From NCBI GenBank assembly GCA_052386675.1, contig JBQTJX010000003.1:2660-66659 (forward strand): a DNA stretch of 64,000 bases. The letters run 5' to 3'. A program made the translations under genes and the position numbers. A model generated the notes under the pieces. That model did no database searches. It was not told where the DNA came from and saw only the letters and a program-made list of their open reading frames with translations. This document shows positions 46,146-63,624 of this stretch, in pieces. This DNA comes from Betaproteobacteria bacterium. Its GTDB lineage: Bacteria; Pseudomonadota; Gammaproteobacteria; Burkholderiales; SG8-39. The stretch's first letter is position 1. Every line of letters begins with the position of its first letter.

Positions 46146-46154
46146 GGCTGCTTG

Positions 46155-47303
46155 CTAGGCCGCGACCTTCAATGCCAGCACGCCCACCGGGCCGGTCTTG
46201 CCCTTGAGCGCCATTTCGCGCCGGTCGAGGGTGGTGTCGCGACCGAGCAGCCGGTCCAGCGACAGCGCGGCGCGCGGCCCGATCAGGATCTCGTTGGCCT
46301 TCGCGTTCTGCATCAGGCGCGCGGCCACGTTCACCGCGTCGCCGATGATGGTATAGCTCACGAAGCTGGGCGCGCCGACGTTGCCCGCCACCACCTCGCC
46401 CGCCTCGATGCCGATGCCGATGCCAAGGGAGAATCCATAGCGCGCCGCCCAGCGTGCGGCCACCGGCCCGAAGCGTTCGATCATGGTCCGCCCGCAGGCG
46501 ACCGCGCGCTCCGCGGCGTCGGGTTGAGGCACCGGCACATTGAATCCGACCAGCAGGCTGTCCCCCGCCATGCTGAACACGGTGCCTTCATGGTCGTGCG
46601 CCGCCGAGGTGAGGACGGTGAAGAACTCGTTGAGCATCGGCACGATGCTGGACACCGGCACGCTCTCCGACAGCCGCGTGAAGCCGCGCAGGTCGGCGAA
46701 CAGCGCCACCACGGCCGTGCGCTCGCTGAGGTTGCGGAACAGGCTCTGGCTGCCGGCGGCGTCGCTCAGCACGCGCTCGGCGAGCTGCGGCGACAGGTAG
46801 CGAGAGAAGGTCTTGCGGATCGCCTCCTTCTCCTGCACCTCGGCAGCCAGGCGGCGCGCCTCCAGCTCCTTGCGGGTGTCGTGGAGCCGGCGCAGCGTCT
46901 TGACGCGCGCGATCAACTCCTCTCGCTTCACGGGCTTGGAAAGGAAGTCATCGGCGCCCGCCTCGATGCCGCGCACCCGGCTGTCCTGGTCCTCGAGCGC
47001 GGTCACCAGCACCACCGGGATCAGCGCCGTGCTCTCGTCGGCCTTGACGCGGCGGCAGATCTCGAAGCCGTCGGGCCCCGGCATCATGACGTCGCACAGC
47101 ACCAGGTCCGGCGCCTCGGTCATGATTTTCATCAGCGCACTGTCGCCGTCGTGGGCAACCAGCGTTTCCAGGCCCTCGCGCTTGAGCCACATCTGCAGGA
47201 AGCCGGCCATGTCGGGGTCGTCGTCGACGACCAATACCCGGAATTGTTCCTGTACCGGCGAAGGCGCGGGGCCTTCTTTCCGATCCCCACCCGGTTCAGG
47301 CAT
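46155..47303 (-). CDS. Response regulator receiver - class III nucleotide cyclase
   Basis: REC: VVDDDPD, CDVMMPG, DDFLSKP; cyclase: FADLRGFT, AGDS, YTIIGDAVNVAAR. Confidence 0.9.
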   Translation of the reverse strand: MPEPGGDRKEGPAPSPVQEQFRVLVVDDDPDMAGFLQMWLKREGLETLVAHDGDSALMKIMTEAPDLVLCDVMMPGPDGFEICRRVKADESTALIPVVLVTALEDQDSRVRGIEAGADDFLSKPVKREELIARVKTLRRLHDTRKELEARRLAAEVQEKEAIRKTFSRYLSPQLAERVLSDAAGSQSLFRNLSERTAVVALFADLRGFTRLSESVPVSSIVPMLNEFFTVLTSAAHDHEGTVFSMAGDSLLVGFNVPVPQPDAAERAVACGRTMIERFGPVAARWAARYGFSLGIGIGIEAGEVVAGNVGAPSFVSYTIIGDAVNVAARLMQNAKANEILIGPRAALSLDRLLGRDTTLDRREMALKGKTGPVGVLALKVAA

Positions 47304-47601
47304 AGACCACTTTGACTTTGGCCAGGTAGTCGGCGTAGTCGGCCAGGCAACGCTCGAGCGCCGCCTTGTCGGTGGCCTTGGCGTTGTCCTCGATCTGCTT
47401 GCCCAACGCCGAGACTTTCTCGAAGCCGTAGGAACTGCCCACGCCCTTCATGCGATGGCCCAGCTGGCGCAGCTTCTCCATGTCGCCCTTGTCGAGTGCG
47501 GCGCGTAACGCCTCGGCCTCCCTGGCACGGTTGGACAGGAAGGTGGGCACCAGGTCTTCGAGGTCCGCCTGGACCGTGACAACGTAGGTTTCGTCGCTCA
47601 T
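47296..47601 (-). CDS. Hpt (histidine phosphotransfer) domain protein
   Basis: LRQLGHRMKGVGSSYGF; helical, about 100 aa; ATG 47601. Confidence 0.9.
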   Translation of the reverse strand: MSDETYVVTVQADLEDLVPTFLSNRAREAEALRAALDKGDMEKLRQLGHRMKGVGSSYGFEKVSALGKQIEDNAKATDKAALERCLADYADYLAKVKVVYA

Positions 47602-47664: not shown

Positions 47665-50600
47665 TTAGTGAAAGTCCCTTGAGCGCAGGGCGAGGCTGCC
47701 GAACAGCGGCTCGAGCATCCGGCCATGGTCCCGCAGCCGCCGGGCCACCAGGTGAACCACGTCGCCTTCACGTTCGACCACGCCCTCCACCCCGAGCAGG
47801 CGAGCCCCCAGCAGTTCCCGGCGCTGGCGCTCTGCGAGATCGCGCCAGACGATGACGTTGACGCAGCCGGTCTCGTCCTCCAGTGTCACGAAGGTGACCC
47901 CGCTCGCGGTGTCCGGACGCTGCCGGCAGGTGACCAGCCCGGCGGCGAGCGCGCGGCGGCCGTGTGCGACCGCGCGCAGTGCCTCGGCGCTCGCCAGCCC
48001 CGCCGCCTCCAGTTGCGGCCGCAACAAGGCCAGGGGGTGGCGGCCCAGAGTGAGGCCGAGGCTATCGTAGTCGGCGGCGATCGCCTCGGCCTCGCCGGAG
48101 GGCGCGAGCGGCACAGCGGCGTCCTCGCGCGGCGCGGCCATCGCCGGCCGACCCTCGCTTCCAGAGGCGAGCCAGTGCGCGTTGCGGCGGTGCCCCGCCA
48201 GCGGGTGCAGCGCATCGGCCGCTGCCAGGCAAGCCAGGTCCCTGCGGTCCAGGCCTGCGCGCCGCGCCAGTTCGTCCACGGTGGAAAACGGACGCGCCGA
48301 AACGACGCGGCGGCCGGCAACCTCGGCCAACCCGCCGACCATGCGCAATCCGAGACGGACGGCAGGCGCCGCGGGCACTGCGCCCTGCTCCAGCGTGCAG
48401 TCCCAGTCGCTCAGGCAGGCGTCCACCCCGCGTACCTCGACGCCGTGGCGGCGCGCGTCCTGCACCAGCTGCGAAGGCGAGTAAAAGCCCATCGGCTGGC
48501 TGTTGAGGAGCGCGGCGAGGAAAGCCGCCGGGTGGTGGCGCTTCAGCCACGCCGAGACGTAGACCAGCAGCGCGAAGCTCGCCGAATGCGATTCCGGGAA
48601 ACCGTAGTCGCCGAAGCCGAGGATCTGGCGGTAGATCGCGTCGGCGAAGGCCGGCGCATAGCCATTCTGCGCCATGCCCTGCTTCAATCGGGCCTCGAAT
48701 GGCTCCAGGCCGCCCTTCTTCTTCCACGCCGCCATGGAGCGGCGCAGCGCATCGGCCTCGCCGGGGGAGAATCCGGCCGCGACCATCGCCAGCTGCATCA
48801 CCTGCTCCTGGAAGATGGGCACGCCCAGCGTCCTCGACAGCACCGCCTCGACCGCCTTGCTCGGATAGATCACCGGTTCCAGCTTCTGCCGGCGGCGCAG
48901 GTAGGGATGCACCATGCCGCCCTGGATCGGGCCCGGGCGCACGATCGCCACCTCGATCACCAGGTCGTAGAAATTCTCCGGTCGCAGGCGCGGCAACATG
49001 CTCATCTGCGCGCGCGACTCGATCTGGAACACGCCCACGGTATCGGCCTCGCGGATCATGGCGTAGGTGTCCGGGTCCTCCGCGGGCACGCGGCGCATGT
49101 CCTCCAGGCCGATGAAATGCAGCGCCTTGCGGATCGCGGTCAGCATGCCCAGGGCCAGCACGTCCACCTTCAGCAGGCCGAGCGACTCCAGGTCGTCCTT
49201 GTCCCACTGGATCACCGTGCGATCGGCCATGACCGCGTTCTCCACCGGCACCAGCTCCGCCAGCGGTCCGCGCGAAATGACGAAGCCGCCGACGTGCTGC
49301 GACAGGTGGCGCGGGAAGCCGACCAGGTCCCCGGCGAGCGCGAGCAGGCGCTGCACCGCGGTGTCCTCCGGGTCGAGGCCCGCCTCGGCCAGGCGCGCGG
49401 GCAGAACCGCGCGCCCGTCCCACCACGACAGCGTCTTCGCCACGCGCTCCAGCTGCGCGGGCTCGAAGCCGAGCGCCCGGCCCATGTCGCGCAAGGCGCT
49501 CCTGGGCCGGTAGCAGATCACCGTGGCCGCAAGTGCCGCGCGTTCGCGGCCGTATTTCCCGTACACGTACTGGATCACCTCCTCGCGCCGCTCGTGCTCG
49601 AAATCGACGTCAATGTCCGGCGGCTCGTTTCTTTCCTTTGACACGAAGCGCTCGAACAGCATGCTCATGCGCGCCGGATCCACCTCGGTGATGCCCAGGC
49701 AATAGCAGACCGCGGAATTCGCCGCCGAGCCGCGGCCCTGGCACAGGATGCCGAGCGAACGCGCATGACGTACCACGTCGTGCACAGTGAGGAAGAAGGG
49801 CTCGTAGCCAAGCTCCGCGATGAGCGCCAGCTCGTGCCCGACGAGGTCCCGCACCGGTGCCGGCGCGCCGCCGGGGAAACGCCAGGCGAGACCTTCCTGC
49901 GCCAGCTTGCCCAGCCAGCTCGCGGGCGTCTCGCCCGCGGGCACCAGTTCTTCGGGGTACTCGTAGCGCAGCGCATCGAGCGAGAAGGCGCAGCGCGCCG
50001 CGACCGCCAGCGTTTCCGCAAGCAGTTCCGCCGGGTAGATCTGCGCCAGCCGGGCGCGCAGCCGCAGGTGCCGCTCGCCATTCGGGAACAGCGCGTGGCC
50101 GCAGTCCTGCACCGGCTTGCCCACGCGCACCGCGGTGAGCGCGTCCTGCAGCCGGCGGCGCGAACGTGCATGCATGTGCACGTCGCCCGCGGCCACGAGC
50201 GGCAGCCCGCTCGCGCGCGACAACTCCCGCAACCGCGCCAGCTCCACGCGGTCATCCGACCCCGCATGCAGTTCCGCCGCAATCCACGCCCGCCCCCGGA
50301 AATCATTGATGAAATCAGGGACAGACCACGTTTTTCCGTCGGAGAAATCGTGGTCTGTCCCTGTTTCTTTCCCTGCTTCCGGGAGCCAGAGGGCGAGCAG
50401 GCCGCTCCAGGCGACGCGCGCCACGTCTTCCCGCGCAAGCGCGTAGGCGCCCTTCTTCGCGCGCCGGCGGCCGGTGGTGATGAGACCGCAAAGCGCGCCG
50501 TAGGCTCGGCGATCGGGCGCGAGCAGCACCAGCCTGTCGCCCTCCTGCAGCCGGAACTCCGCGCCGATGAGCAGCTTCAGGCCGTGCTGCTTCGCCGCGA

Positions 50601-50766
50601 CGTGCGCGCGCACGATGCCGGCGAGGGAACACTCGTCGGTGAGCGCCAGCGCTGCATAGCCCAGCGCGGCGGCGCGCGCCGCCAGTTCCTCCGGCTGCGA
50701 CGCCCCGCGCAGGAACGAGAAGTTCGACAGGCAGTGCAGCTCGGCATAGTCAGGCAAAGATGCCAT
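47665..50766 (-). CDS. dnaE2: Error-prone DNA polymerase DnaE2 (ImuC)
   Basis: [56 protein letters not shown]-terminal SRDFH. Confidence 0.97.
50311..50367. repeat. 57-bp REP-like palindromic element, copy 2, in frame within dnaE2
   Basis: Arms CAGGGACAGACCACG/CGTGGTCTGTCCCTG (50316-50363); encodes [19 protein letters not shown] (DnaE2 residues 134-152). Confidence 0.9.
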
Positions 50767-51979
50767 GCACCCGCCAGCCTTCCGCGTCCCGGTACACCCA
50801 GACGAGGGAACCCCGTGCCCGCGCGACGAAGTAATCGCGGCGCACCTCTCTCCCGTCCCACCATCCTGACTCGATCCGCTCAGGCCCGGCGAGCAACTCG
50901 AGGCCGCCTTCCTCGACCCCTTTCAGCGCGCGCGGCGGCTCGACCAGCCACAGCGGGCGCGCGCCGGGTCCCGGCGCCTCCCTTACCCCGCGCGTTCCGG
51001 CCTCGACCGGCTTCCAGGCGAACTCCGGGCGGTGCTCGGCGTGCAGTCCCAGGCCATGGACCGCACCACGGCCAAAGCGGGCCTGCAGGCGCTCGACCAG
51101 GCGCAGCCAGTCTTCTCCGCCGCCCTCCTCCCCGAACAAGCCACGGCTGTGCCCGTCGAGCGGCACAATGTCCGCCGCCGACAGCCGCACCGCCTCGGCC
51201 AACGCCACGAGTGGCCGGCGCTCCAGCCGCTCGCGCAGCAGGTGCGCGAAATGCCCCGCATCCCGCGCCGGCGCGGCCAGGCCGACCTCGACCGTGGTGG
51301 CCGATGCCTTCGCATGGAACAGCTCCAGGGTGAAGCGGCGCACGCCGCTGTGGCGCGCCGCGAGGAAACCCTCCAGCCCGGTGAGCAGGCGCCGGGCCGC
51401 AAACAGCACGGCGGCCGCCTCGAACACCGGCACCGGCAGTTCCAGCCGCGCCTCGAAACGCGCCGGCGGAACGTAGAGCCGCCGCGGTTCCGGGATGCGT
51501 CCCAGCGCTTGGTCGAGTTCGTCCACCAGCGCCTGGCCGAAGCGCCGCGCCACGCCCTCACGCGGCAGCGCTAGCAGTCCGCCCAGGTCCCGGATGCCCA
51601 GCCCCTGCAGCAGCTTCAGCCGGTCTGCCGGAAGGCCGAGTACCGCGACCGGCAACTGTTCAAGAGGTAATCCGCCGCCCGCCGCCCGCCAGAGCGCCGC
51701 GCGCGCGGTGTGTGCGAAGGCGAGCACGCCTTCGAAGCCCAGCTGAGCGAGGCCGGTGCGGATCCCGCGCGCGAGTTTCCCCGCGCCGCCGTACAGGCGC
51801 AGGCTGCCCGCGACCTCGGCTGTCAGGCCCCCGGGCGGCTCAAGCGACACCTTGGGGGTGTAGCGCCCCATCCAGGCCGCGATCGCTTCGAGCGCCTCGC
51901 GCCCGGCTTCAGGCGGCGCATGCCCGCGTGCGAGCGCCTGCGACTCGATCCCAGGCAGGTGCAGGGCTACCCACAGCAT
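50750..51979 (-). CDS. imuB: ImuB (Y-family polymerase-like accessory protein)
   Basis: [28 protein letters not shown]-terminal [13 protein letters not shown]...RDYF; sits between imuA and dnaE2. Confidence 0.92.
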
Positions 51980-52607
51980 GGATCGGCCTTCCGATGTGGA
52001 AATGCAGCGGTGCGCGCGCAGGCGCGCCACGGCGCTTGAGGACATGGACGAGGACCTGCCCCCCGGCTGGTTCCAGGGCGAGGCGCAGGCGCGCCGGCGA
52101 GGCTTCCTCCGCCGCGGCCAGCGGACGAAACAGCACGACGAACGCCGGCCCGCCCTCGGCGGCCACCGCCAGCCGGCGCAGTTCCGGATAGCCCGGGCGC
52201 TGCGGCCAGGCCAGCAGAGCGTGGAAGGCGCGCGAGCGCAACGCCTGCTCGGCGGCCCACAGCGCATCGCGCCGCCCCGGCGCGCGCACCACGGTGAGGT
52301 ACTCCAGCGCCACGCCCGCCGCAGCGAGCGCCGGGGCGTAAGGCAGATGCGGCGGCGCCAGCCAGGCCACACGCTGACCAGCGGCGGTCAGCCGGGCGAG
52401 CGCTGGCAGCACCAGCTGCAGCTCACCGATGCCCTCGGTTCCGGATAGAACCTCGCTCAGCGCCCCGGTGGGCCAGCCGCCGCCGGGCAACTCGCAATCG
52501 AGAGACGGGAGACCGGTGGCGATGGCAGGCGCGCCCGCGGTCGGTGCGGCGCCACGCCAGAGGTCCTGTCGCCGGAGAAGGGGTACGAGGGAATCGAGGG
52601 GCATCAT
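51909..52607 (-). CDS. imuA: ImuA (RecA/SulA-like translesion accessory protein)
   Basis: DLWRG, TGLPSLDCELPGGGWPTGALSE, GIGELQL, EQALRS, ASPARLRL; ATG 52607 or 52604. Confidence 0.92.
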   Translation of the reverse strand: MMPLDSLVPLLRRQDLWRGAAPTAGAPAIATGLPSLDCELPGGGWPTGALSEVLSGTEGIGELQLVLPALARLTAAGQRVAWLAPPHLPYAPALAAAGVALEYLTVVRAPGRRDALWAAEQALRSRAFHALLAWPQRPGYPELRRLAVAAEGGPAFVVLFRPLAAAEEASPARLRLALEPAGGQVLVHVLKRRGAPARAPLHFHIGRPIHAVGSPAPAWDRVAGARTRACAA

Positions 52608-52663: not shown

Positions 52664-54163
52664 CTACTTCTTCTTCAGCTGCTTGACCTGCGCCATGTAG
52701 GCGGAGAGGAAATCTCGCCCGAACACCTTGTTGAAGTCGTCGTTCGCGTCGCGCGCCAGCTTCTGCTGGTAGGTGGCGAACAGCCCCCACAGCTTGGCCT
52801 TGCGGTTCAGGCCCAGGCCGCCGGAGGACTTCTCCAGGTCCTCTTCCAGCTTCTTCGGATCGAAGCGCGCCACCGCTCCCAGGATCGCGGCGCGCATCCC
52901 GGCGATCAGGGCGGCTTCATGCGCGCGCATGTCGTCGAAGGCGTCGCTCACCGCCTGCACCGGGGTGAGGAAGCCGCCGGAGCGCTCCTTCGGATCGAAC
53001 AGGAAATCGATCGCCTCCTGCGGGTCGGCCATCAGCTTGAGCGGGTTGTTGTCGCGCGAGGCGACCATGGTGCGGTCCTCGGCGCGGAATTCCTTCTTCG
53101 CCTCGGCGCGCGCCACCAGCAGCGCCATGACGCCGTCGATGGCGGCGCGCGTGATGGCGCCGCACTGGCGCAGATACTGCTCCGCCTCGGCGTCGCTGGC
53201 GAAACTGCGCGGCGGCAGCCCGGCGCCCTCGAGGAAGACCCGCAACGCCTCCTGCGCACCCGGCCCGGCTGCCCCGCCCTCGGGCTGCGGAAAGGTCGTC
53301 TCCGCAGGTCGAGTGCGCAGCAGCGTCTGCTCCAGGAACACGCTGCGGTCCTCGTACGGCACTTCCGGTTCCGCGGGCGAAGGCTTCGGCAAGTCGTCGC
53401 CTTTGGCTGGTTCGTCAAAAAAGCCGTCTTCCGGCGGCGGCAGGTTGCGCAGCAGCGTCACTTCCTTGAACACGCTGTCCTCGACGGATTCCTCCGCGGG
53501 CCCGGATCCCTCTTTCCGTCCGTCCATGGACTTGCCCATGTAGGTCGGCTCTTCGAACATGTCCGCCGGCGGCGGCGCACCGGTATAGGTCGCCTCGGCA
53601 AACACGCTGTCGTCCGTCGCTGGCGCCTTGGGTGCCTGCTCGGGCATCGGTTGCGTCACGGCCGCCGGCTGCGATTCCGGCTCCGGCGCCGGTTCGGGAT
53701 CAAGCAGTATGTCGGGCACCTCCGGCACCGGCTGGCCGATGAAGGTCGGCTCCGCGATCGGTGACCGGGTGATGAACGTCGGTTCCTCAAGCGGGGACCG
53801 GGTAATGAAGGTCGGCTCGGATGCGTCGGCGAGCGGCGGCGGCGGCGCTGGCGGCACCAGCTCGATTTCGTATTCGCCGATCTCGACCCGATCGCCGCCG
53901 CGCAACTGCACCCGGCTGCCCGGATCGTGCCGCTGTCCCGCGACGAACACCGGGTTGACCTTGGACACCACGTTCAGCCAGTACTCTCCGTCCTCGACGT
54001 TCAGCTCCGCGTGCACCCGCGATACCCACTTCTTGGGATCCTCGAGGTGCAGCAGGCACTCCGTGCCGCGGCCAATGGTGATGCGCGCATTGTCGAACGC
54101 GCGTTCGCGCAGCAGCGTCGGGCTGGCGCTGCCCTTCTGGTACAGCTTCAGCGCGAGAGTCAT
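52664..54163 (-). CDS. T6SS-associated FHA domain protein (TagH/Fha-like)
   Basis: FHA TIGRG...VSRVHA; Pro/Glu-rich linker; TagH C-terminal NNPLKL...DMRAHEAALIAGMRAA...FGRDFLSAY. Confidence 0.9.
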   Translation of the reverse strand: MTLALKLYQKGSASPTLLRERAFDNARITIGRGTECLLHLEDPKKWVSRVHAELNVEDGEYWLNVVSKVNPVFVAGQRHDPGSRVQLRGGDRVEIGEYEIELVPPAPPPPLADASEPTFITRSPLEEPTFITRSPIAEPTFIGQPVPEVPDILLDPEPAPEPESQPAAVTQPMPEQAPKAPATDDSVFAEATYTGAPPPADMFEEPTYMGKSMDGRKEGSGPAEESVEDSVFKEVTLLRNLPPPEDGFFDEPAKGDDLPKPSPAEPEVPYEDRSVFLEQTLLRTRPAETTFPQPEGGAAGPGAQEALRVFLEGAGLPPRSFASDAEAEQYLRQCGAITRAAIDGVMALLVARAEAKKEFRAEDRTMVASRDNNPLKLMADPQEAIDFLFDPKERSGGFLTPVQAVSDAFDDMRAHEAALIAGMRAAILGAVARFDPKKLEEDLEKSSGGLGLNRKAKLWGLFATYQQKLARDANDDFNKVFGRDFLSAYMAQVKQLKKK

Positions 54164-54768
54164 GATGCTGCCGCGACCTGGATGGGTTTGCCGGTAAGCA
54201 TGGTGCAGTATTGCTCGATGTCCGGGAGCCCTTCAATCGTGAACTGCATCCCGGAAGCCACTTCGGAGGTCTCGCTGGACCAGGCGCTGCAGGGTTTCAA
54301 CCGTGCTGCGGAGGGCGCAGCGCGGTCGATCCGGCAATCCGGGAGCGGGAGCGCGGCGATGGAATCGTCGAAGGCGCTGATCTCGATCGCCGGCGACAGC
54401 GCCTCGGTGCCGAGCATCTCCGCCATGGCGAACCAACTGCCCATCGCCGCCAGCGCTGCATCCGGGTCGAGCGATCCGGCCTCGAGGCCGCAGACCAGCG
54501 TGAGCGGGTAGTAGCGGCCAACCGAATCCACGCTCGGCACCATGACGCCGCACCATGCGCGCGGCGAGAGCACGCCGGGGGCGAGGACGAAGCGCCAGGC
54601 CGGCGCCGACAGGAAGCTTTCCTGCCAGCGCTCGCGCAAGCGCTCGCGGCTGCCGGCGAGGACCGCGAGCAGCCATTGCTCCCAGGGCGCGGCGAATGCC
54701 GGCTCCACCCTGCGCGAAAGGAAATCCCCGCTCGAGGGCAGCTTGCCGGTCCAGCCGCAGCGAGCCAT
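54160..54768 (-). CDS. tagF: T6SS-associated TagF/ImpM
   Basis: GWTGKLPSSGDF, APAWRFVL, GVMVPSVDSVGRYYPL. Confidence 0.9.
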   Translation of the reverse strand: MARCGWTGKLPSSGDFLSRRVEPAFAAPWEQWLLAVLAGSRERLRERWQESFLSAPAWRFVLAPGVLSPRAWCGVMVPSVDSVGRYYPLTLVCGLEAGSLDPDAALAAMGSWFAMAEMLGTEALSPAIEISAFDDSIAALPLPDCRIDRAAPSAARLKPCSAWSSETSEVASGMQFTIEGLPDIEQYCTMLTGKPIQVAAAS

Positions 54769-54776
54769 GGGCGCGT

Positions 54777-56723
54777 TCACGAGGCCTTCCCGGCCGCGAG
54801 CCGCGCGCGCGCATCGCGCACCAGCGCTTCGTTGTACGGATGCGGGATGTCGGCGCGCGCTTCCTGCAGCCCGGCGTGGAGGTGGCTGCGCAACTCGGCG
54901 CGGCGCGCCTCGGGCACCTGCCACAGGTCGGACACTGCCGCGTCCAGCGCCGCGGCATCCGGTGCTTTCGGGTCATGGAGCGCAAGGTAGGCCTTGAGCG
55001 CGGCTTCCAGCGCCTCGCGGCCGCGCGCGGCACGCACCGCGTCCTCCAGGGTGACCGCGACGCGCGCCAGCAGGCCGTCGCGCAGCGCCGTCCGGTAGGC
55101 GCGTTGCGCCTGGGAACCCAGCTTCTCGCCCTGGTACAGGCCAAAGCGCAGGGTCGCGGGCACTGGCGATTCGCGCTCGACGTAGCCGCCGGGCAGGTCG
55201 CGCAGCGTGTTGAGCGCATCGAGCAGGCGCAGTTCCCCGTTGCCGGGCACGGCCTCGGCCAATTGCTGCTTCGCCTGTGCCGCCTTCCTGGCGCTCTCAG
55301 CGACGATGGCACGATTGCCCTGGAAGCTTACGGTCCAGGCCACGGCGACCGCCACGGACAGCGCCACGAGCGCCACCTGGGCCACGGGTCGCCACGACCG
55401 GCGCCTGCCGTCGTCCTCGGCCAGCCCCTGCTCCGGGAAAATGACTTCGCGCAGAAGGCGGTTGAGGAAAAAGCTCTTGCCGGTGCTTCCCGTCTGTTCA
55501 GCGGCCGCCCGCTCCAGGCCGAAGCTGCGCGCCAGCGCGCCGAGCACGCGGTCGATCGGATTGCCTTCCTGGGTGCCACTCGTGTAGTAGACCCCGCGCA
55601 ACATGGTGGAGACGTGGTTCTGTTGCTGCGAGAAGGCGAGGCCGATGAATTCGCCCACCAGCGGCCCCAGGGCGTGGAACTGCTGCGGGAAACGGTAGAT
55701 GGCCGCGCGGCGCTGCAGGTCGCGCTCATCCTGAAGGCGTTCGACGAGCACTGCGTTGAGGCGCTGCTCCAGTTCCCTGAACTCCGCGGCATAGCGTTGC
55801 GCCAGGGTATCGGCGACAGGCTCCGAACCGGACTGGAAGGTCGTGCCCCAGACGCGGGCACGGCCTGCGGCGTCGAGTTCGCCGAAAAACTCCATGAACC
55901 CGGCCAGCAGGTCGGACTTCGTCACCAGGACGTACACCGGGAAGCGCGATCCCAGCCGTGCGTACAGCTCCGCCAGCCGCATGCGCACGTGGCCGGCGTA
56001 TCGGATGCGCTCCTTTTCGTTCCACAGCATCAGGTCGGAGACGCTGACGGTGACGATGGCGCCATTGAGCGGGCGCTCCGGACGGAACTGCTTCAGCAGG
56101 CCGAGGAAACCGTACCAGGCCGCGGCATCCGCCTTGCGATCGCTCTCCTGCGTGGTGTAGCGGCCGGCCGTGTCGAGCAGCACGGCATCCTCGGTGAACC
56201 ACCAGTCGCAGTTGCGAGTGCCGCCGACACCCTGGACCGAGGGCGCGCCCTGGTTACCATCGAGCGGGAAGCGCAGTCCGGAATTGACCAGCGCCGTGGT
56301 CTTTCCCGAGCCAGGCGCGCCGATGAACATGTACCAGGGCAACTCATGCAGGCGCCGGCGCTCGCCTTCCGGCCCTGTGAAGCGTGCCTCGCGCAACACT
56401 TCCGAAGCCGCGACGAAACGCGCACGCAATGTTTCCAGTTCCGCCGTGGCGCGCGCCGCGGAATCGCCCTCGGCGCCCGCAACCGCGATTGCTTCCAGCA
56501 TCCGGGCGGTTTCCAGACGCGCATTGTGAACGCGCCACGTCTCCCAGCCCAGCCAGGCCACTGCCGCAGCGGCGATCAGGCCGATGCGCTGCGCCGGCAG
56601 GTCGAGCGGCCGCCACTCGCCCAGGGCGATGGCATCCCCGGCGAACCAGACCACGGCCGCGAACGCGAGCCAGGCAGCGGCGCCGAGCGTCCAGCGATTG
56701 GCGAAGCGGCCGAGTCCTTTCAT
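54777..56723 (-). CDS. tssM: Short TssM/IcmF-like membrane protein (C-terminally truncated)
   Basis: LPWYMFIGAPGSGKTT, GGTRNCDWWF, DTAGRY, RFPVYVLVTKSDLLAGF, LRGVYYTSGTQEG, SFFL, LGLY-like FGLYQG; only 648 aa. Confidence 0.85.
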   Translation of the reverse strand: MKGLGRFANRWTLGAAAWLAFAAVVWFAGDAIALGEWRPLDLPAQRIGLIAAAAVAWLGWETWRVHNARLETARMLEAIAVAGAEGDSAARATAELETLRARFVAASEVLREARFTGPEGERRRLHELPWYMFIGAPGSGKTTALVNSGLRFPLDGNQGAPSVQGVGGTRNCDWWFTEDAVLLDTAGRYTTQESDRKADAAAWYGFLGLLKQFRPERPLNGAIVTVSVSDLMLWNEKERIRYAGHVRMRLAELYARLGSRFPVYVLVTKSDLLAGFMEFFGELDAAGRARVWGTTFQSGSEPVADTLAQRYAAEFRELEQRLNAVLVERLQDERDLQRRAAIYRFPQQFHALGPLVGEFIGLAFSQQQNHVSTMLRGVYYTSGTQEGNPIDRVLGALARSFGLERAAAEQTGSTGKSFFLNRLLREVIFPEQGLAEDDGRRRSWRPVAQVALVALSVAVAVAWTVSFQGNRAIVAESARKAAQAKQQLAEAVPGNGELRLLDALNTLRDLPGGYVERESPVPATLRFGLYQGEKLGSQAQRAYRTALRDGLLARVAVTLEDAVRAARGREALEAALKAYLALHDPKAPDAAALDAAVSDLWQVPEARRAELRSHLHAGLQEARADIPHPYNEALVRDARARLAAGKAS

Positions 56724-58336
56724 GGCGCCGCCCTGAGGATGATCACTACGCGGCGGTTTCGCGCGCGATTGGCCTCCGAGTCGTTGGGACCGACGGGCTG
56801 CGAGTCGGCGACGCCCTCGGCCTTGAGGCGCGCCGGGTCGGAGAGCCTGGATCCCATCAGTTTCACCACCGACTGCGCGCGCCCGGTGGACAGCTCCCAG
56901 TTCGAATGGAAGCGCGCGGAGCGGATCGGCAGGTCGTCAGTGTGGCCGGTGACCAGTATTGCGCCCGGCACGCGCTCCAGCGCCTCGGTGATCCTGAGCA
57001 CCACAGGCTCCAGCCCGGCTTCGAGCCGGGCGCTGCCCGAGGCAAACAGGCGATCGCTGCGCAGGACGATGGTACTGCGCAGGGCATCTTCGGTGACGAC
57101 AACCTGGCCGGCCTTGATTGCCTCGGCCAAGTGCGTGGCCACGCGCTCTGCGGGAACGCCGGACGCTGTCGAGGCCGCCGCCACAGTCGGCTCCGGTGCC
57201 GCCGGCGGGGCGAGCCGCGCGAGGTCGCGCGCGACAGGGTCCGACAGTGCACCGAGCGACGCGACAAAGATGAGGTAGAGCACCACCAGCACGAGCGCCA
57301 GTGCGCTGCCAAGACCCCAGAGGAGCAGCGCGCCCGGGATCCGCCGGCTTCGCGTCTTCACGCCGCGCCAGTTGGCGGACAACTCGCCGTCGGCGGCCGG
57401 CGGCCGGCGCACCGCAACATGCCCGTGAATCCGCAGGCGAACGGCCTCAAGGGCCTCCCCGCCGCCCTCCGCGCCGCGGTACTTGCCTTCGTAGCCGAGC
57501 GCCAGGCACGCATAGAAGAACTCGATCAGGTCGCCGTTCGCGAGCGGCGCCTCCAGCGCACGCGCCACGTCGTCGAAGAACTTTGCGCCGGTGGTATCGC
57601 CGTCGAGCAGCATCCGCACCAGCCCGTTCTCGGACCAGCTCGCCCCCCAGGGAGTGCGCGAAGCGGATTCATCGAGCAGCGCGCACAGCGCATGGCGCGC
57701 AACCTGTATCACCTCCGCATCGGCGCCGGCAATGCCAGCCGCCGCCTCGAACGTGTCCAGCTGCTCGGCCAGCGTCTCCCGCAGGGCGCCGGCGTCCGGG
57801 TGACGCAGCGACTGCCGGATCTGCGGCACGGCGCCCAGGATCGGATTGGCCGCCTCCACCAATGGATTGAATCCACCCAGCGCGGCGAGATCGGCACGCA
57901 CCGCATCGCGGCCTGGCTTGGGCGCAAAGGGATTGCGGCGCCTTCCAGGGGTCGGAATCGCAATGGTGGCGTCCGGGTCCAGCGCCGGTGCCTCCAGCTG
58001 CGCGGCGGGCCGCGCCATGCGCGGTGGAATCGCGACCGTCGCCTCCGGGTCGGGCGGCAGGAAAAACGGGCTGCGCGCCATCGGGTCGGTTGCTTCCGGG
58101 TCAGGTTCGGACGCGGGAGGCGACTGCGCTGCGGGTGGCTGCGCGATGGCGCGGGCCGGTATCGCGATGGTGGCATCCGGATTCTCGCCAGGGTCCTGTG
58201 TCGCGTTCAGAACCGGCAGCGGCATGGAAACCGTGGCGTCCGGATCGACCAGCGGGCCGGCCTCTGGCTTCAGCGAGGGAATGGCGACGGTTGCGTCGGG
58301 ATCAACGCCTTCGCCCGGACGCTCCGCCATCCTCAC
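56720..58336 (-). CDS. tssL: TssL/DotU with C-terminal OmpA/MotB peptidoglycan-binding domain and repetitive N-terminal extension
   Basis: NPLVEAANPIL, LCALLDE, FFYACLALGYEGKY, TM, LFASGSA, VTGHTDD, NWELSTGRA, NRARNRRV. Confidence 0.92.
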   Translation of the reverse strand: MRMAERPGEGVDPDATVAIPSLKPEAGPLVDPDATVSMPLPVLNATQDPGENPDATIAIPARAIAQPPAAQSPPASEPDPEATDPMARSPFFLPPDPEATVAIPPRMARPAAQLEAPALDPDATIAIPTPGRRRNPFAPKPGRDAVRADLAALGGFNPLVEAANPILGAVPQIRQSLRHPDAGALRETLAEQLDTFEAAAGIAGADAEVIQVARHALCALLDESASRTPWGASWSENGLVRMLLDGDTTGAKFFDDVARALEAPLANGDLIEFFYACLALGYEGKYRGAEGGGEALEAVRLRIHGHVAVRRPPAADGELSANWRGVKTRSRRIPGALLLWGLGSALALVLVVLYLIFVASLGALSDPVARDLARLAPPAAPEPTVAAASTASGVPAERVATHLAEAIKAGQVVVTEDALRSTIVLRSDRLFASGSARLEAGLEPVVLRITEALERVPGAILVTGHTDDLPIRSARFHSNWELSTGRAQSVVKLMGSRLSDPARLKAEGVADSQPVGPNDSEANRARNRRVVIILRAAP

Positions 58337-58386: not shown

Positions 58387-61113
58387 TCAGCGCCGCGCCG
58401 CGGTCGGAACGGATTCGCCGGCCAGGCGAGCCGCCTCGTACCATTGCAGCGACTCTGCCAGATCACGTCCGACGCCCGGTACACCCTTGTCGTATATCTC
58501 CCCCAGCCGCTTCGCAGCCGGGCCACTGCCCTTGCGTGCGGCGAGTCGATAGACGCGCACCGCGTCGCGGAATTTGCCTTCCTCTTCCAGCGTGCGGCCC
58601 TGAACCATCGGATCTAGGGCGGCGACCTGCGTCTTGCCTGAGGCCTGCGCCTTGGCCGCGAGCTCGGCCTGACGCTGCGCCTCCTGTTCGAGCTCCTCGC
58701 GTTCGCGGCGCGAAATCTGCGGCACGGTATCGGACTTGGGCTCGGCGATGGGAATCGCTGGCGCCGAGGGTGCCGGCGTGCCGGGAGCCAGCGAAGCCGT
58801 CTTCGTTGGCGCCTTGGCGGGTGCGGCGGACTTGGTCGCTGGAGCTTTGCCCGGGGATACCGCGGCCACCGTCTCCTGCTTGGTCGGCTCCGGCTTGGCG
58901 GGTTCGGCGACCGGCGCGGGCGCCACCGTCGGAGCCACCGCCACCGCGGGCTCCGGGGCCTTCACCGGGGCCTTGCTCTGCTTGTCGGCGGTGGCCTTGG
59001 CCTTGCTCGCGGCTTCAGCCGCGGCTGCCGCCGCCGCCTGACGCTGCTTCACCAGCTCCGCCTGCTTGTTCATCTCCGCCTCGGCGCGCTTGGCGGCATC
59101 CTGCGCCTCCTTCAGCTTGGCGGTATCGCCCGCCTTGCGCGCGGCCTCCTCTGCTGCCCGCGCCTGCTCGAACGCCTTCAGGGACTCCAACTGCTTCGCC
59201 TGCGCCTGCTTCAATTCCTCGGTCGCCTTGGTCGCGTCCTCGAAAGCCTTCACAACCTGGGCCTGACGCTCGCGTGCCTCCTTGCCCAGGTAGTACCAGG
59301 CGCCTCCGCCCAAACCAACCAGCAGGACGAATCCCGCGACAATCGGGATTACCGGAATCTTGCCCTTTGGCGCGTCGGCCAGTTCCTTCTTCAGTTGCGC
59401 TTCGCGCTTGGCGTGCTCGGCTTCGCGCCGAGTGCGCTCTTCGGCTTCCTTCTTTGCACGTTCCTCGGCGTCCGCTTTCGCCTTGGCCAGTTCCTCAGTC
59501 TGCTTCTTCGCACGCGCTTCCGCTTCGGCCCGCGCCTTGGCGGCCGCGACTTCGGCTTCCTTGCGTGCCTTCTCCTCGGTCTCGCGTCGCGCCTTGGCTT
59601 CCGCCTCGGCCTTGGCGCGCGCAGCAGCGGCCTCAACGTCGCGCCGGGCCATCTCGGCCTCGTACCTCGCCTTCGCCTCCGCCTCGCGCTTTGCGAGCAG
59701 GCTCTCGGCATCTTTCCTGGCCTTCTCGATCTCCAGCGCCCGCGCCTTGGCGTCGGCTTCGGCCTTTGCCTTCATTTCGGCTTCGCGCTTGGCGTCCTGC
59801 TCCGCGCGCGCTTTCTCCGCGGCGATGCGACGGGCCTCCGCCTCGGCCTCGCGTTTCTTGAACTCCGCCTCGCGCTCGGCCAGTTGCTGCTCAAGCTTGG
59901 CCTTCTCGTCCGCGAGCTTCGTGCGCGCTTCCTCTTCCTTGCGCGCGGCCTCCTCCAGCTCTTTCTTCTCCTGCTCCCTCGCCTTGGCGCCAGTCTCCTC
60001 CGGCGCCACGCCGCGCAGCTTCGCGATCTTGCGCTTGGCGAGCGCGGCATAGATCCCCGCCGGAAACTGCTGCACGTAGAGCTCGAAGTCGTCCGGGTCG
60101 TTGCCGTCCTTGATCGAGCGCCAGAACTCCAGCTCGACTTCCTGAGTGCCCGAGGCAGTGGCGTTGGTCCTCGCCGAGGCGTCGGCCTTGGCCGCGGCCA
60201 TTTGCGGCACCGGCATCATCCCGGTGGCAGACATCGATCCGACCACGGTCTTGTCGTCGTCCTCCTCGCCATGACCTTCCAGCGCACGCTTGAGCGCGAG
60301 GCCGAGGTCGCGGGCGGTCTGGTAGCGCGCCTCGACGCTCTTGGCGAGTGCCTTGTTGACCACCGCGTCAAACAGCGCCGAGACGCCCTTGTTGATCGAC
60401 GACGGGACCGGCGGATTGTCCTGGATGATCTTCTTGGCGATGGTCCAGGCGCCCGAGCCGGTGAACGGCTTCTCGCCGGTCAGGAACTGGTACAGGATGA
60501 TGCCGGCAGAGAAGATGTCGCTGCGCCGATCAACGCTGCCACCCGTGATCTGCTCCGGCGACATGTAGGCAGGCGTGCCAACCATGGTCCCTGCCTGGGT
60601 CTTCTCGGTTGAGGAACTGTCGGTGATGCGCGCGACGCCGAAATCGGCCAGCTTCACCTTGCCAGTGGTGTCGATCATCACGTTGGCCGGCTTGATGTCG
60701 CGATGCACGATGCCCGCCTCGTGGGCAAAGTGCAGCGCGTCGCACAATTCCGCCATGATGCGAACGGCTTCCTTGATGTCGAAGCGCTCACTGGCGTCGA
60801 AGAAGTTCTTGAGCTCCTTGCCCTTGATGAACTCCATCACGATGTATGCGATGTCACCTTCCTCGCCGAAGTCGTACACCTGCACGATATTGGCGTGGTT
60901 CAGGCGTGCGACCGCCTGGGCCTCGCGCACGAACCGCATCGAGTATTCCTTGGCGGTGTCGGCGTCAAGCGCGCTCTTCAGGATTGTCTTGATCGCAACC
61001 GTGCGATGCAGGCGAGGGTCGATGCCGGCGTACACCATGCCCATCGCGCCTTTGCCGAGGACACGGTCTATGTCGTAGCGGCCGAGCCGCTTGATGTCAG
61101 GCGCGGCGGACAC
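58387..61113 (-). CDS. Membrane Ser/Thr kinase with long coiled coil, TM and C-terminal Sel1-like repeat
   Basis: GKGAMGMV, VAIK, HRDIKPAN, DFGVAR, GTPAYMSPE; EAKARA-rich helix; TM IVAGFVLLVGLGGGAWYY; LGEIYDKG..RDLAESLQWY; start GTG 61113 (after GAGGG) or TTG 61149. Confidence 0.9.
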   Translation of the reverse strand: MSAAPDIKRLGRYDIDRVLGKGAMGMVYAGIDPRLHRTVAIKTILKSALDADTAKEYSMRFVREAQAVARLNHANIVQVYDFGEEGDIAYIVMEFIKGKELKNFFDASERFDIKEAVRIMAELCDALHFAHEAGIVHRDIKPANVMIDTTGKVKLADFGVARITDSSSTEKTQAGTMVGTPAYMSPEQITGGSVDRRSDIFSAGIILYQFLTGEKPFTGSGAWTIAKKIIQDNPPVPSSINKGVSALFDAVVNKALAKSVEARYQTARDLGLALKRALEGHGEEDDDKTVVGSMSATGMMPVPQMAAAKADASARTNATASGTQEVELEFWRSIKDGNDPDDFELYVQQFPAGIYAALAKRKIAKLRGVAPEETGAKAREQEKKELEEAARKEEEARTKLADEKAKLEQQLAEREAEFKKREAEAEARRIAAEKARAEQDAKREAEMKAKAEADAKARALEIEKARKDAESLLAKREAEAKARYEAEMARRDVEAAAARAKAEAEAKARRETEEKARKEAEVAAAKARAEAEARAKKQTEELAKAKADAEERAKKEAEERTRREAEHAKREAQLKKELADAPKGKIPVIPIVAGFVLLVGLGGGAWYYLGKEARERQAQVVKAFEDATKATEELKQAQAKQLESLKAFEQARAAEEAARKAGDTAKLKEAQDAAKRAEAEMNKQAELVKQRQAAAAAAAEAASKAKATADKQSKAPVKAPEPAVAVAPTVAPAPVAEPAKPEPTKQETVAAVSPGKAPATKSAAPAKAPTKTASLAPGTPAPSAPAIPIAEPKSDTVPQISRREREELEQEAQRQAELAAKAQASGKTQVAALDPMVQGRTLEEEGKFRDAVRVYRLAARKGSGPAAKRLGEIYDKGVPGVGRDLAESLQWYEAARLAGESVPTAARR

Positions 61114-61319
61114 CGGCGGGGATCCCTCGATGCCGGGGGCGGCCTGCAAGCATCGGATTTTGCGTAAGTTTCAGCACGGTTCTGGTCGCGATGTCCGAAT
61201 TGTAGATTATCTCGGCGGGCCGGGTTGCTGACAAGGGCATTTGTCGCGCCCTGGCGTCACCCTCGCCGTCGAATCCGTTGAACGGATCATTCGCAAGGAA
61301 GGGTCAATTGTGGGGGGGG

Positions 61320-62051
61320 TCAGCGAATCGAAGGCCCGCGCGTCTCGGCGCGCGGCACCGCGACACCCTGCTCGCGCGCCAACTGGTACCACCTAAGTGC
61401 CGTAGCGTAGTCGCGCTGCACTGCGGCCGTGCCCTTGTCGTAGATCTCGCCCAGCTTCCTCTGCGCCAGGCCGTGGCCTGACTCCCCCGCCTCCAGGTAG
61501 GCGTTGAAAGCTCCGACCTCGTCGCCCCGGCGTTCCGCCGCCAGCCCGTCCTTATAGCGTCGCTCGGCCTCGTCCCGCCCGAGCAGGCCTTTTCCCGGGC
61601 GCTTCTGCGCCGCTCCTGGAGCCGGAACGGCCGCTACCGGTGGCGTCACCGGTCTGGGCTCCGCCGCGGCAGGCGGAGGCTTCAGGGCAGTCAGGGTACG
61701 GACCTCCAGCATGGCTTCCGCCGGCGGCAGCTCCGCCATGGCGTCGCGCGGTGGAATGGCCAGCACCGCACCGACCCGCAACTGGTTGATGTTGCCCCCG
61801 GTGAAGGCATCCGGATTCGCCCGGAACAGCGCCACCAGGACCTGATTCAGCGTCACACCTTCCGGCCGCAGCCGGCGGGCAATGGCGTACAGGGTGTCGC
61901 CGCGTTTGACATCGTAGGACACTGCCGCTCTTGCCGGTGCCGAAGCTGCAGGTTTCGCGTCCGGCGCTTGCGCACCTGAGGCGATCGGGAATAACAGGGA
62001 AAGCGAAAGGGCGATGGACCTCGCAACAGGGATCGTGGCCGTTACTCGCAC
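61320..62051 (-). CDS. Exported FimV N-terminal (LysM-like) plus Sel1-like repeat protein
   Basis: Signal peptide; YDVKRGDTLYAIA...LNQVLVALFRANPDAF..GNINQLRVGAVL; LGEIYDKG..RDYATALRWY; start inferred. Confidence 0.82.
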   Translation of the reverse strand: MRVTATIPVARSIALSLSLLFPIASGAQAPDAKPAASAPARAAVSYDVKRGDTLYAIARRLRPEGVTLNQVLVALFRANPDAFTGGNINQLRVGAVLAIPPRDAMAELPPAEAMLEVRTLTALKPPPAAAEPRPVTPPVAAVPAPGAAQKRPGKGLLGRDEAERRYKDGLAAERRGDEVGAFNAYLEAGESGHGLAQRKLGEIYDKGTAAVQRDYATALRWYQLAREQGVAVPRAETRGPSIR

Positions 62052-62926
62052 GTGAATTCGAGCACGTCGGTCGCAGTGGAGCGCGACTGCCCGAACGTGA
62101 TCCAGCCCTTGCCGCGCAGGGTGAACTCCTCCCGGCGCAGCACGATTTCCTTGTCGCCGTCGACGGTCACGTAGGTGCCGTTGGCGCTGTGGTCCGTGAG
62201 GATGAACTTGTCCAGCCGGCGCTCGATCTTGCCGTGCGAGCGCGAAGCCATCTTGTCGCGCACCACGAGATCCGCGCTCTGGTCCCGGCCCATGGACACC
62301 GCGGTGCGCTCGTCTGAAAGCATGGTCTCGCCTCCCTGCAGCAGCAGGCGCAGCGAGGTCTTCTTCGGCTTCAGCACCGAGCGCGCCGCTGCCATGGTGG
62401 TGGCGTCCTCGCTCTGCTGCCACATCAACTCGTAGGCCTCGACCGGCTCCGACTTGCCCTTGACTGCGATCTGGCTGATCTTGCGCGTGGCGCTCTTGAG
62501 CATCGGCGACATCAGCATCACAGTTTCGCGCGAGGTGATGATCTGCCCCTTGACCGCCACATGCGACAGGCGCGAGGCAACGTTGACCGCATCGCCAAAA
62601 ATGTCACCATCCTTGTGCACCAGCGGGCCAAAGTAGAAGCCGACACGTATGCCAATCTTGGTGCCACCTACCGGCAGCAACTCGCTGATGGCGCTCTGCA
62701 TCTCGATCGCGGCGTCGGCCGCCGCGTCCGCGTCCGGGAAGGTGGACAGCACTTCGTCGCCGATGGTCTTGATGACCTTGCCCTTGGCCGCCTCGGTCTT
62801 CTGGCGCATCAGCACGATGCAACGCTCGATGGCAGCATGCGCGGCCTGATCGCCGGCGGTTTCGTACAGCTTGGTGCTGCCGCTGACGTCGGCGAACAGG
62901 ACTGCGGCTTCTGGTTCGGCACTCAT
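62042..62926 (-). CDS. Class III adenylate cyclase with C-terminal FHA domain
   Basis: FADVSGST, VIKTIGDE, DIFGDAVNVASR (K/D specificity pair and N/R intact); FHA MGR...SRSH...ANGT. Confidence 0.92.
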   Translation of the reverse strand: MSAEPEAAVLFADVSGSTKLYETAGDQAAHAAIERCIVLMRQKTEAAKGKVIKTIGDEVLSTFPDADAAADAAIEMQSAISELLPVGGTKIGIRVGFYFGPLVHKDGDIFGDAVNVASRLSHVAVKGQIITSRETVMLMSPMLKSATRKISQIAVKGKSEPVEAYELMWQQSEDATTMAAARSVLKPKKTSLRLLLQGGETMLSDERTAVSMGRDQSADLVVRDKMASRSHGKIERRLDKFILTDHSANGTYVTVDGDKEIVLRREEFTLRGKGWITFGQSRSTATDVLEFTCE

Positions 62927-62939
62927 GGCGTCGGTCGGT

Positions 62940-63278
62940 TCAGCCAAACATGGCCTGCAGGATGCGGCGCGCCGGCGCCGCGTCGGCCTGCCCCATGCGC
63001 CGAGACAGGCGCGTCACCGAGAGGCAGCGGATCTGGTCCAGCGCGACCGAGCGCGGCTTGGCGAGCACTGATACCACGCAGCGGGTCGGCCAGTCACGGT
63101 TGGTGGAGGTCAGTGGTGCGACGATGACGGTCGACAGGACCCGATTCATCTCGTCGGGCGACACTACAAGTACTGGCTGGCGGCCGGACGAGGCCAGGTC
63201 CGCGAGGTAAATGTCACCCTGGCGTGGCGTGGCGGGGCTGGCCGGGCTGCGCTGGCTATTGGTCGCAAGCTTCGCCAA
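62940..63278 (-). CDS. PemK/MazF family toxin
   Basis: RQGDIYLADL, PVLVVS, VIVAPLTS, LDQIRCLS..RL; overlaps the antitoxin gene. Confidence 0.85.
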   Translation of the reverse strand: MAKLATNSQRSPASPATPRQGDIYLADLASSGRQPVLVVSPDEMNRVLSTVIVAPLTSTNRDWPTRCVVSVLAKPRSVALDQIRCLSVTRLSRRMGQADAAPARRILQAMFG

Positions 63279-63507
63279 GCGGCACCCCCTTCAACAGGTC
63301 TTCCCTCACCTCGCCTGCCCTCGCCGCCCGGAGCTTCTCCTCCCAGCCCGGACGAGGGTTCTTCGCCCTGCCTGGCGAGATCACGATCGAACGCGCGCGG
63401 ACCTCGATGTCCACGGGGTCGCCAGCGTCCAGGCTGCAGCGCCGCAGCACATCCTGCGGCAGGCGCACTCCCTTCGAATTTCCGATTGCGACGATTTTGC
63501 TCTGCAT
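63256..63507 (-). CDS. AbrB/MazE family antitoxin
   Basis: IVAIGNSKGVRLPQDVL, IVISP, PRPGWEE; ATG 63507. Confidence 0.88.
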   Translation of the reverse strand: MQSKIVAIGNSKGVRLPQDVLRRCSLDAGDPVDIEVRARSIVISPGRAKNPRPGWEEKLRAARAGEVREDLLKGVPLGEACDQ

Positions 63508-63518
63508 GGGCCGGGAAG

Positions 63519-63535
63519 TAATTACTACGTAATTA
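63519..63535. promoter_or_regulatory. Palindromic operator of the TA pair
   Basis: TAATTAC-TAC-GTAATTA, 11 bp upstream of the antitoxin ATG. Confidence 0.7.
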
Positions 63536-63541
63536 TGCACC

Positions 63542-63570
63542 AAAAAAAACGGGGCGCTTGCGGCGCCCCG
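63542..63570 (-). terminator. Intrinsic terminator downstream of the exoprotein gene
   Basis: Stem CGGGGCGC/GCGCCCCG with a run of 8 T on the minus strand. Confidence 0.8.
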
Positions 63571-63624
63571 CGTTCGCGCACCCATTTTCACAGGGCGCGA
63601 GGGGTACGGATGTTCCGGCCCGGC

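Follow-up and report, generated by a model that had tools for sequence, protein, structure and literature searches.

A sixfold threonine motif in the N-terminal tail of an orphan TssL-like protein, a candidate multi-site docking array for FHA proteins

The window analysed here, a whole stretch of 64,000 nucleotides from a Betaproteobacteria bacterium of the order Burkholderiales (assembly GCA_052386675.1, contig JBQTJX010000003.1, positions 2,660 to 66,659 of the forward strand), contains a gene for a protein related to TssL, a membrane component of type VI secretion systems (T6SS), whose N-terminal tail carries six copies of a threonine-centred motif. An original prediction, made by a model from the letters of the DNA, had read these copies as an array of phosphothreonine (pThr) sites for neighbouring FHA proteins. 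The gene lies in a module of seven genes, all on the minus strand and ordered cyclase-FHA, LysM/Sel1 protein, kinase, TssL, mini-TssM, TagF and Fha, and all examined relatives with this module (module A) keep the same arrangement, the short TssM among it.

The TssL-like gene (56720..58330, minus strand; Pfam and NCBIfam) is of the long form, in which a DotU domain, a transmembrane (TM) helix and an OmpA part follow one another. The open reading frame (ORF) 56720-58336(-) translates into 538 amino acids (aa) from a GTG at 58336 and into 536 aa from an ATG at 58330. The ATG is probably the start, since a GGAG Shine-Dalgarno sequence lies 8-11 nt upstream of it, homologues begin with MAERPGEG and the database copy has 536 aa. 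The DotU cytoplasmic domain occupies residues 158-357 (57266..57865, minus strand; Pfam PF09850, 5.4e-51), with helices modelled confidently by AlphaFold2, and passes TIGR03349 with 155.8 against a cut-off of 89.95; at its end stands a single TM helix (model residues 336-364), also confident. The periplasmic OmpA-like peptidoglycan-binding domain follows at residues 430-528 (56753..57049, minus strand; Pfam OmpA, 1.1e-11) and passes TIGR03350 with 145.4 against 139.8. The score for the full-length equivalog NF005444 is 369.6 bits, below its cut-off of 520. Having passed TIGR03349 and TIGR03350, the product of this only DotU gene of the genome is, as far as profile matches can tell, a TssL by descent, but by its context not a T6SS subunit.

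Ahead of the Pfam DotU match lies an extension of about 155 aa, longer than the roughly 130 aa first estimated, with 20% Pro and with 6/8 of its Thr inside the motif. The AlphaFold2 model, built on a 120-sequence alignment, assigns nearly the whole of residues 1-150 predicted local distance difference test (pLDDT) values below 50 and hardly any secondary structure, while the DotU, TM and OmpA parts of the same model are confident. The tail bearing the array (about residues 1-150; 57881..58330, minus strand) is predicted, from the model and its composition, to be disordered and, by analogy with the TssL topology reported for Agrobacterium tumefaciens (PMC3953482), is cytoplasmic. A resemblance of the motif to a TonB box (D-T-h-h-V-T-A) was considered and rejected, the tail being cytoplasmic.

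Six [DN]-P-[DE]-A-T motifs are present in this tail, five of them continuing as [VI]-[AS]-[IM]-P and one as D-P-M. By translation they read VDPDATVAIP, VDPDATVSMP, ENPDATIAIP, PDPEATDPMA, PDPEATVAIP and LDPDATIAIP; the six strings of the original prediction have exact matches in the translation of 56720-58336(-), and the array, placed there at 57950-58310, measures 57947-58306. All copies are encoded on the minus strand, and their threonines are numbered here from the GTG/ATG start. Copy 1 (VDPDATVAIPSL; 58271..58306; Thr 16/14) is the most conserved and keeps its Thr in 20/20 close orthologues, as does copy 2 (VDPDATVSMPLP; 58214..58249; Thr 35/33). Copy 3 (ENPDATIAIPAR; 58151..58186; Thr 56/54), with Thr in 18/20, is the most variable one and reads DP[ED]DT[IV]SGP in relatives. 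The variant copy 4 (PDPEATDPMARS; 58070..58105; Thr 83/81), followed by a conserved RSPF[FY], has its Thr in 20/20, and its DPEATD subtype is also conserved (as DPEATDRHP) in paralogous proteins, referred to below as TssL-B. Copy 5 (PDPEATVAIPPR; 58019..58054; Thr 100/98) has Thr in 19/20, and the proximal, ancestral copy 6 (LDPDATIAIPTP, continuing as GRRRNPFAPK; 57947..57982; Thr 124/122) in 16/20. Just past the proximal Thr, the stretch IAIPTPGRRxNPFAPK (57935-57970(-), residues about 125-136) is nearly invariant, even in the four orthologues without that Thr, and appears to be a separate conserved element.

A chance origin of the six copies is excluded. Among 200,000 composition-preserving shuffles, the maximum was two P[DE]AT as against six. 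All six frames of the 3.7-Mb genome together hold just five matches to the strict 9-residue motif, of which four lie in the array, and the reversed motif, used as a null, gave 0. The motifs are unevenly placed, at intervals of 17-27 aa; their codons vary at synonymous sites, and Tandem Repeats Finder reported no DNA repeat over them, giving just a weak 10-nt match at 58128-58155, between copies 3 and 4. The "tandem" repeats of the original prediction hold as repeated copies but not as a tandem DNA repeat; a recent DNA duplication of the array in this genome was dropped as an explanation on the same result, and the copies are best regarded as dispersed linear motifs kept at the protein level.

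A homologue search of 5.8 billion proteins yielded 718 relatives, the best 120 of which were inspected; with a generalised pattern, 20 have one or a degenerate copy and 101 have 3-8. The consensus in these homologues is x-P-D-[PD]-D-A-T-V-[MA]-[IML]-P, many relatives using D-D-D-A-T. In the 20 close orthologues every motif copy is positionally orthologous, and motif columns have a mean identity of 0.80 against 0.53 for linker columns (Mann-Whitney p = 2e-6); the variable linkers, of Pro/Ala, diverge in length as well as sequence, and the copies are conserved in proteins down to about 50% identity. Loss of the threonine among homologues, the outcome singled out beforehand as damaging to a docking role, is not what these proteins display: it is present in 20/20 close orthologues in copies 1, 2 and 4, and with a definition that rests on the flanking residues only, leaving the centre free, Thr is found in 454/454 cases and Ser in 0 (119 homologues). 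Acidic residues occupy positions -2 and -4, and among 580 motif instances, a set gathered with Thr required, 91% have I, M or L at +3.

In two relatives the array is coded by an in-frame 39-nt tandem repeat, with 4.5 copies and 92% matches at 11461-11636 of locus L065 and 3.6 copies and 78% matches at 6611-6752 of locus L064, on account of which the copy number in relatives is taken to change by tandem duplication. A search of 1.8 billion representative proteins with the 157-aa tail alone gave 23 matches, all of them TssL N-termini, and no other family by this route. Of the loci retrieved with the TssL-like protein alone, three are true relatives, and the remaining 16 align with little beyond the C-terminal OmpA part.

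The proximal copy (DATIAIPTPGRRRNPF) matches a single D-x-T-h-h-h-P-x-P-G-G-R motif that stands just ahead of DotU in many canonical TssLs, examples being DRTITIPTPGGR, DRTLIRPAPGGRR and DSTVIIPTPGRRK. On the strength of this match the array is considered an amplification of one ancestral element at the TssL N-terminus, in keeping with the amplification first proposed. The distribution of the single motif was compared with that of TagH-type Fha, sought in the cluster or genome, for 42 TssLs, each from a genome of the same order that is sheath-positive: the strict motif is present in 12/21 TssLs with such an Fha and in 0/21 without (Fisher p = 5e-5, a value that ignores phylogeny), and three more Fha-positive TssLs carry looser variants. 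Genome G214, with three copies, was rejected as a motif-positive, Fha-negative exception; PpkA is present there and the FHA gene is cut by the contig end. These counts connect the motif with the FHA/threonine-phosphorylation branch of T6SS evolution.

The other genes of the module supply candidates for the writing and reading of pThr. Immediately upstream of the TssL-like gene, a PpkA-like Hanks Ser/Thr kinase (58387..61149, minus strand; Pfam Pkinase 6.4e-57, Sel1) contains, in addition to the kinase domain, a coiled coil, a TM helix and, in the periplasm, a Sel1 repeat; its translation shows HRDIKPAN and DFG, its synteny with TssL holds throughout the module-A relatives, and it is the candidate writer. 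A periplasmic LysM/Sel1 protein (61320..62051, minus strand; Pfam on the longer ORF 61320-62423), also syntenic in relatives, is encoded between the kinase and a class III nucleotide cyclase with a C-terminal FHA domain (62042..62947, minus strand; Pfam Guanylate_cyc 1.5e-17, FHA 1.9e-9). This cyclase-FHA protein, 77-80% identical and syntenic in relatives, is a candidate second reader. On the other side of the TssL-like gene follow mini-TssM (54777..56723, minus strand), TagF (54160..54924, minus strand; Pfam TagF_N 2.2e-41, TIGR03373 above cut-off) and a TagH-type Fha (52664..54163, minus strand; Pfam), a candidate reader, in which an FHA domain, a Thr-rich linker and T6SS_FHA_C are recognised, whose translation shows GR, SRVH and N, and which scores 239.9 in TIGR03354 against a cut-off of 120. 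The neighbouring kinase and two FHA proteins pointed out in the original prediction are syntenic in every relative examined. Within the linker of Fha (53320-53820(-)) there are Thr-centred repeats of its own, EPTFI three times and then EATYT, EPTYM, EVTLL and EQTLL, in sequence unlike DPDAT. The genome as a whole (3.7 Mb) has about 15 Hanks-kinase loci, of which two share 62-74% identity with the module kinase domain, and at least four FHA loci.

Mini-TssM has 648 aa and consists, by Pfam, of the IcmF-N NTPase and the first half of the IcmF-related domain; TIGR03348 is matched at positions 3-639 of 1168, and the periplasmic C-terminal half is missing. In a functional T6SS this half reaches TssJ and the outer membrane. 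The called gene of relative L021 encodes 645 aa, and in most module-A loci the tblastn alignment covers the full 648-aa query; owing to this similar length, mini-TssM is regarded as a real short form rather than a frameshift.

Around the module, the error-prone polymerase DnaE2 and an adjoining 545-aa ORF without a Pfam match, in an ImuB-like position, lie directly downstream of fha (47668-52387(-)), an arrangement found in L021 too. A receiver-Hanks-kinase fusion beside a receiver-cyclase fusion (44871-47447(-)) lies a few kb from the module. The cyclase-side flank (62943-63591(-)) has a MazF/PemK-like toxin and an adjoining small ORF, and the corresponding small gene in L021 gives a weak MazE-antitoxin Pfam match.

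The status of TssL as a T6SS component, implied in the original prediction, has to be given up. Neither TssC nor TssK was found in the organism's own genome, and both TssC and Hcp are absent (0/34) from the 34 genomes of its genus, most of which carry the TssL-like gene; on these absences the protein is judged not to be a working T6SS TssL. Incomplete binning as the cause of the missing T6SS was rejected, given the 0/34 for TssC and Hcp across the genus. Of 401 genomes sampled evenly from the order, 93 carry DotU, 86 of them with TssC and 7 without, and 4 of those 7 belong to the organism's own family. By its gene content the module is described as the membrane and regulatory arm of a T6SS kept without the secretion apparatus.

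The motif also recurs outside the module. The paralogue TssL-B, with 5-7 DP[DE]AT copies, is encoded together with a 374-aa IcmF-N-only protein in many genomes of the genus and in one from a sister genus, the pair standing between hscA-fdx and a glyoxalase gene (loci L052-L057 of genus g1 and L066 of G228); it is absent from the organism's own genome. In the sister genus, locus L112 (G228:C9:62000-81900) has adjoining genes for a cyclase-FHA-like protein and a TagH-Fha, and the sole TssL, of the TssL-B type, lies on another contig. The IHF-beta of the genome under study (contig C2:182200-182529 (-); loci L118-L147) ends in the C-terminal tail ...DSMDPDATMVMPPRPRQAAT / ...RERVDSMDPDATMVMPPRPRQAAT with the same Thr motif, which is found in 28/29 IHF-beta genes recovered from the genus, with two copies in G001; outside the family, IHF-beta ends at about residue 93. 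In addition, a FimV-like protein (LysM, TM, TPR; contig C38, about 111930 (-)) has one DPDATVAMDFD in a C-terminal D-F-D-L repeat region, where agreement with the motif is limited to the eight residues DPDATVAM, since D replaces Pro at +4.

The array is best read, with slightly better than even confidence, as a multi-site dock in which pThr residues are bound by FHA proteins. FHA domains need pThr, and for this reason a Thr without any Ser is the signature expected of such a dock. Further arguments for it are the predicted disorder of the tail, the conserved kinase and FHA genes alongside, the tie between ancestral motif and Fha, the Agrobacterium precedent and the PpkA-Fha condensates of Acidovorax. 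Several candidate sites in a predicted disordered segment, accompanied by two FHA proteins, provide at the sequence level what a multivalent pThr-FHA scaffold calls for. Phosphorylation, FHA binding, avidity and cyclase activation are each steps that we infer, as follows. The threonines of the motif (consensus D-P-D-A-T-V-[AM]-[IM]-P) would be phospho-acceptors for Hanks-type kinases, in the first place for the membrane kinase encoded immediately upstream, and each pThr would form a low-affinity FHA dock, a hydrophobic pT+3 being what FHA domains usually prefer. With a number of sites on each tail, combined with oligomerisation in the membrane, a high-avidity, switch-like recruitment of TagH/Fha and the cyclase-FHA protein may then result. 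Class III cyclases are active as dimers, and two cyclase-FHA monomers on adjacent pThr sites might on that account be favoured to dimerise, activating the cyclase. The output of the module would be envelope-linked signalling or scaffold assembly and not secretion, because it lacks a T6SS sheath, tube and baseplate. Multivalency is mechanistically attractive since the single pThr site of A. tumefaciens TssL binds Fha weakly, with a dissociation constant (Kd) of 0.5-2 mM (PMC3953482).

Several observations weigh against such a dock. The invariant Thr could be structural, as part of a peptide-binding motif that operates independently of phosphorylation. The proximal copy 6 is without its Thr in 4/20 close orthologues, the correlation between motif and Fha is not corrected for phylogeny, and homology between the Agrobacterium site and DPDATVAIP is not demonstrable from their sequences. 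Pfam finds no PP2C domain in the module, the three PP2C loci of the genome lying on other contigs. Beyond the module, TssL-B has no kinase or FHA gene within 10 kb, the +3 residue of its copies is usually not hydrophobic, and G031, a 96%-complete genome, has TssL-B without TagH-Fha; the IHF-beta motif tail is likewise found in genomes lacking the module altogether (G002 and G029, with neither TssL nor TagH-Fha). Judged by this distribution, the motif is not private to the module, and its writer and reader are at least partly encoded elsewhere. Of the partnership originally proposed, the synteny of kinase and FHA proteins stands, but they cannot be the sole writer and readers, as the motif is carried by TssL-B and IHF-beta without them.

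The findings on TssL-B and IHF-beta leave some probability to a phospho-independent linear motif, that is, an unmodified beta-strand-forming peptide bound by a genus-wide partner, with the copies raising avidity or tethering several partners at once; candidates for the partner are the IcmF-N NTPase domain, which stands beside both TssL paralogues, or a widely conserved protein that also binds the IHF-beta tail. The 374-aa IcmF-N protein is the only conserved neighbour of TssL-B, with no kinase or FHA gene nearby, the motif is on IHF-beta in G002 and G029 without TssL and TagH-Fha, alternating hydrophobic residues followed by Pro suit strand addition, and the module has no phosphatase. This explanation is nonetheless regarded as improbable: the Thr in 454/454 cases without Ser, the acidic -2/-4 and the hydrophobic +3 are what Hanks-kinase/FHA sites typically show, in real T6SS clusters the ancestral motif goes together with TagH-Fha, and the plentiful Hanks kinases of the genome could serve sites outside the module. 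Still less probable is phosphorylation of the Thr without an FHA dock, whereby charge or conformation would be altered (e.g., the tail being freed from DotU or the membrane) or the tail would act as a substrate sink that buffers the kinase output. An adjacent kinase and a predicted disordered tail would suit it, as would copies ranging from 1 to 8 with little constraint on spacing and the lack, in the copy-4 subtype (pT followed by D-P) and in the TssL-B copies, of the hydrophobic +3 that many FHA domains prefer. However, charge effects would tolerate Ser, of which none is seen, two FHA proteins are conserved in the operon, and the sole TssL phospho-site studied experimentally is an FHA dock.

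Two further explanations fare far worse. The gene names and order resemble the threonine phosphorylation arm of a T6SS cluster (ppkA, tssL, tssM, tagF, fha), as a multi-site switch of the Agrobacterium type gating T6SS assembly and firing would have it, but this classical explanation is essentially excluded by the missing TssC and TssK in the genome, by the 0/34 for TssC and Hcp in a genus whose order has TssC in 86/93 DotU-positive genomes, and by the conserved truncation of TssM. Neutral repeat expansion in a low-complexity linker, without specific function, could draw on the recent 39-nt tandem duplications in relatives, which mark an expansion-prone region; it is very hard to credit when diverging linkers stand against copies that are each orthologous in position and conserved down to about 50% identity, the copies of this genome differ at synonymous sites, and the motif recurs on the unrelated IHF-beta. 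In the opposite direction, the multi-site dock could be widened into a speculative and on balance unlikely scheme, where DPDAT-h-h-h-P would serve as a lineage-wide pThr "address label" in this uncultured genus of the Burkholderiales and the former T6SS membrane complex as an envelope signalling scaffold, with FHA assemblies or condensates nucleated at the membrane by the tail, dimerisation of the cyclase-FHA protein and IHF-beta tagged by the same code. If true, it would couple the state of the envelope to second-messenger output and chromosome architecture.

The array itself is a solid and widely conserved observation; its function rests on inference. Thr14 of Agrobacterium is the sole TssL phospho-site studied so far, and the motif described here is a different N-terminal Thr motif, widespread in TssLs, which by tracking TagH-Fha in genuine T6SS clusters becomes a concrete candidate for a general TssL-Fha contact. 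With up to 8 copies in one lineage, it offers a natural series of 1 to 8 sites for testing avidity or condensate formation in the recruitment of Fha. The module presents a clean case of machine parts re-used for signalling, and its recurrence on IHF-beta, where the Thr motif is concerned, hints that a Ser/Thr-kinase code extends more widely in these bacteria.

Searches of the accessible literature gave no relevant match to the motif strings or to orphan tssL/tssM modules of this kind, and a 2026 review of T6SS accessory factors mentions neither these nor TssL arrays. The precedent invoked by the original prediction is real: in A. tumefaciens, PpkA phosphorylates TssL at Thr14 and Fha binds that pThr, a site that according to its authors is not conserved outside the Rhizobiaceae (PMC3953482). 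The two systems share a TssL of the long form whose cytoplasmic N-terminus carries a Thr in an acidic-x-x-T-V-hydrophobic context (QDLPpTVVEI versus DPDATVAIP), an adjacent Hanks kinase, a TagH-type FHA protein and TagF, and the Thr of copy 1 is also residue 14 from the ATG. The Agrobacterium protein has one site, unlike the six of the TssL-like protein, and its peptide STDNPSSWQDLPpTVVEITEESR shares just the D..T-V-hydrophobic pattern and the residue number, with no PxPGGR continuation; moreover, A. tumefaciens has TagF-PppA and a complete T6SS, whereas the present module has no phosphatase and no T6SS.

In the H1-T6SS pathway of Pseudomonas aeruginosa, PpkA, PppA and Fha1 act together with repression by TagF (PMC13584744, PMC12607579). 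As in the present module, tssL/tssM have beside them the genes for TagF, for a TagH-type Fha and for a Hanks kinase that sits in the membrane and has a periplasmic sensor part; the substrate there is Fha1 and not TssL, and PppA, TagQRST and the output of sheath assembly have no counterpart here. In the TssW-PpkA-Fha system of Acidovorax citrulli, the cytoplasmic domain of TssL is recruited into condensates of PpkA and Fha; the T6SS is functional, the phosphorylation site mapped is on Fha (T640), and an array of TssL motifs is not described (PMC12607579). Acidovorax, like the present host, belongs to the Burkholderiales, and in condensates such as these a multivalent pThr tail would be of consequence.

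A further parallel is Rv1747 of Mycobacterium tuberculosis, for which phosphorylation-driven clustering is reported. In this protein a disordered linker, phosphorylated at several positions, joins two FHA domains. It is subject to PknF-dependent regulation (PMC3138270). Rv1747 is an ABC transporter of an unrelated family from an actinobacterial host, and its sites and FHA domains are on one polypeptide; what it shares with the TssL-like module is several pThr sites, here candidate ones, in a disordered segment of a membrane protein, together with FHA readers and multivalent assembly.

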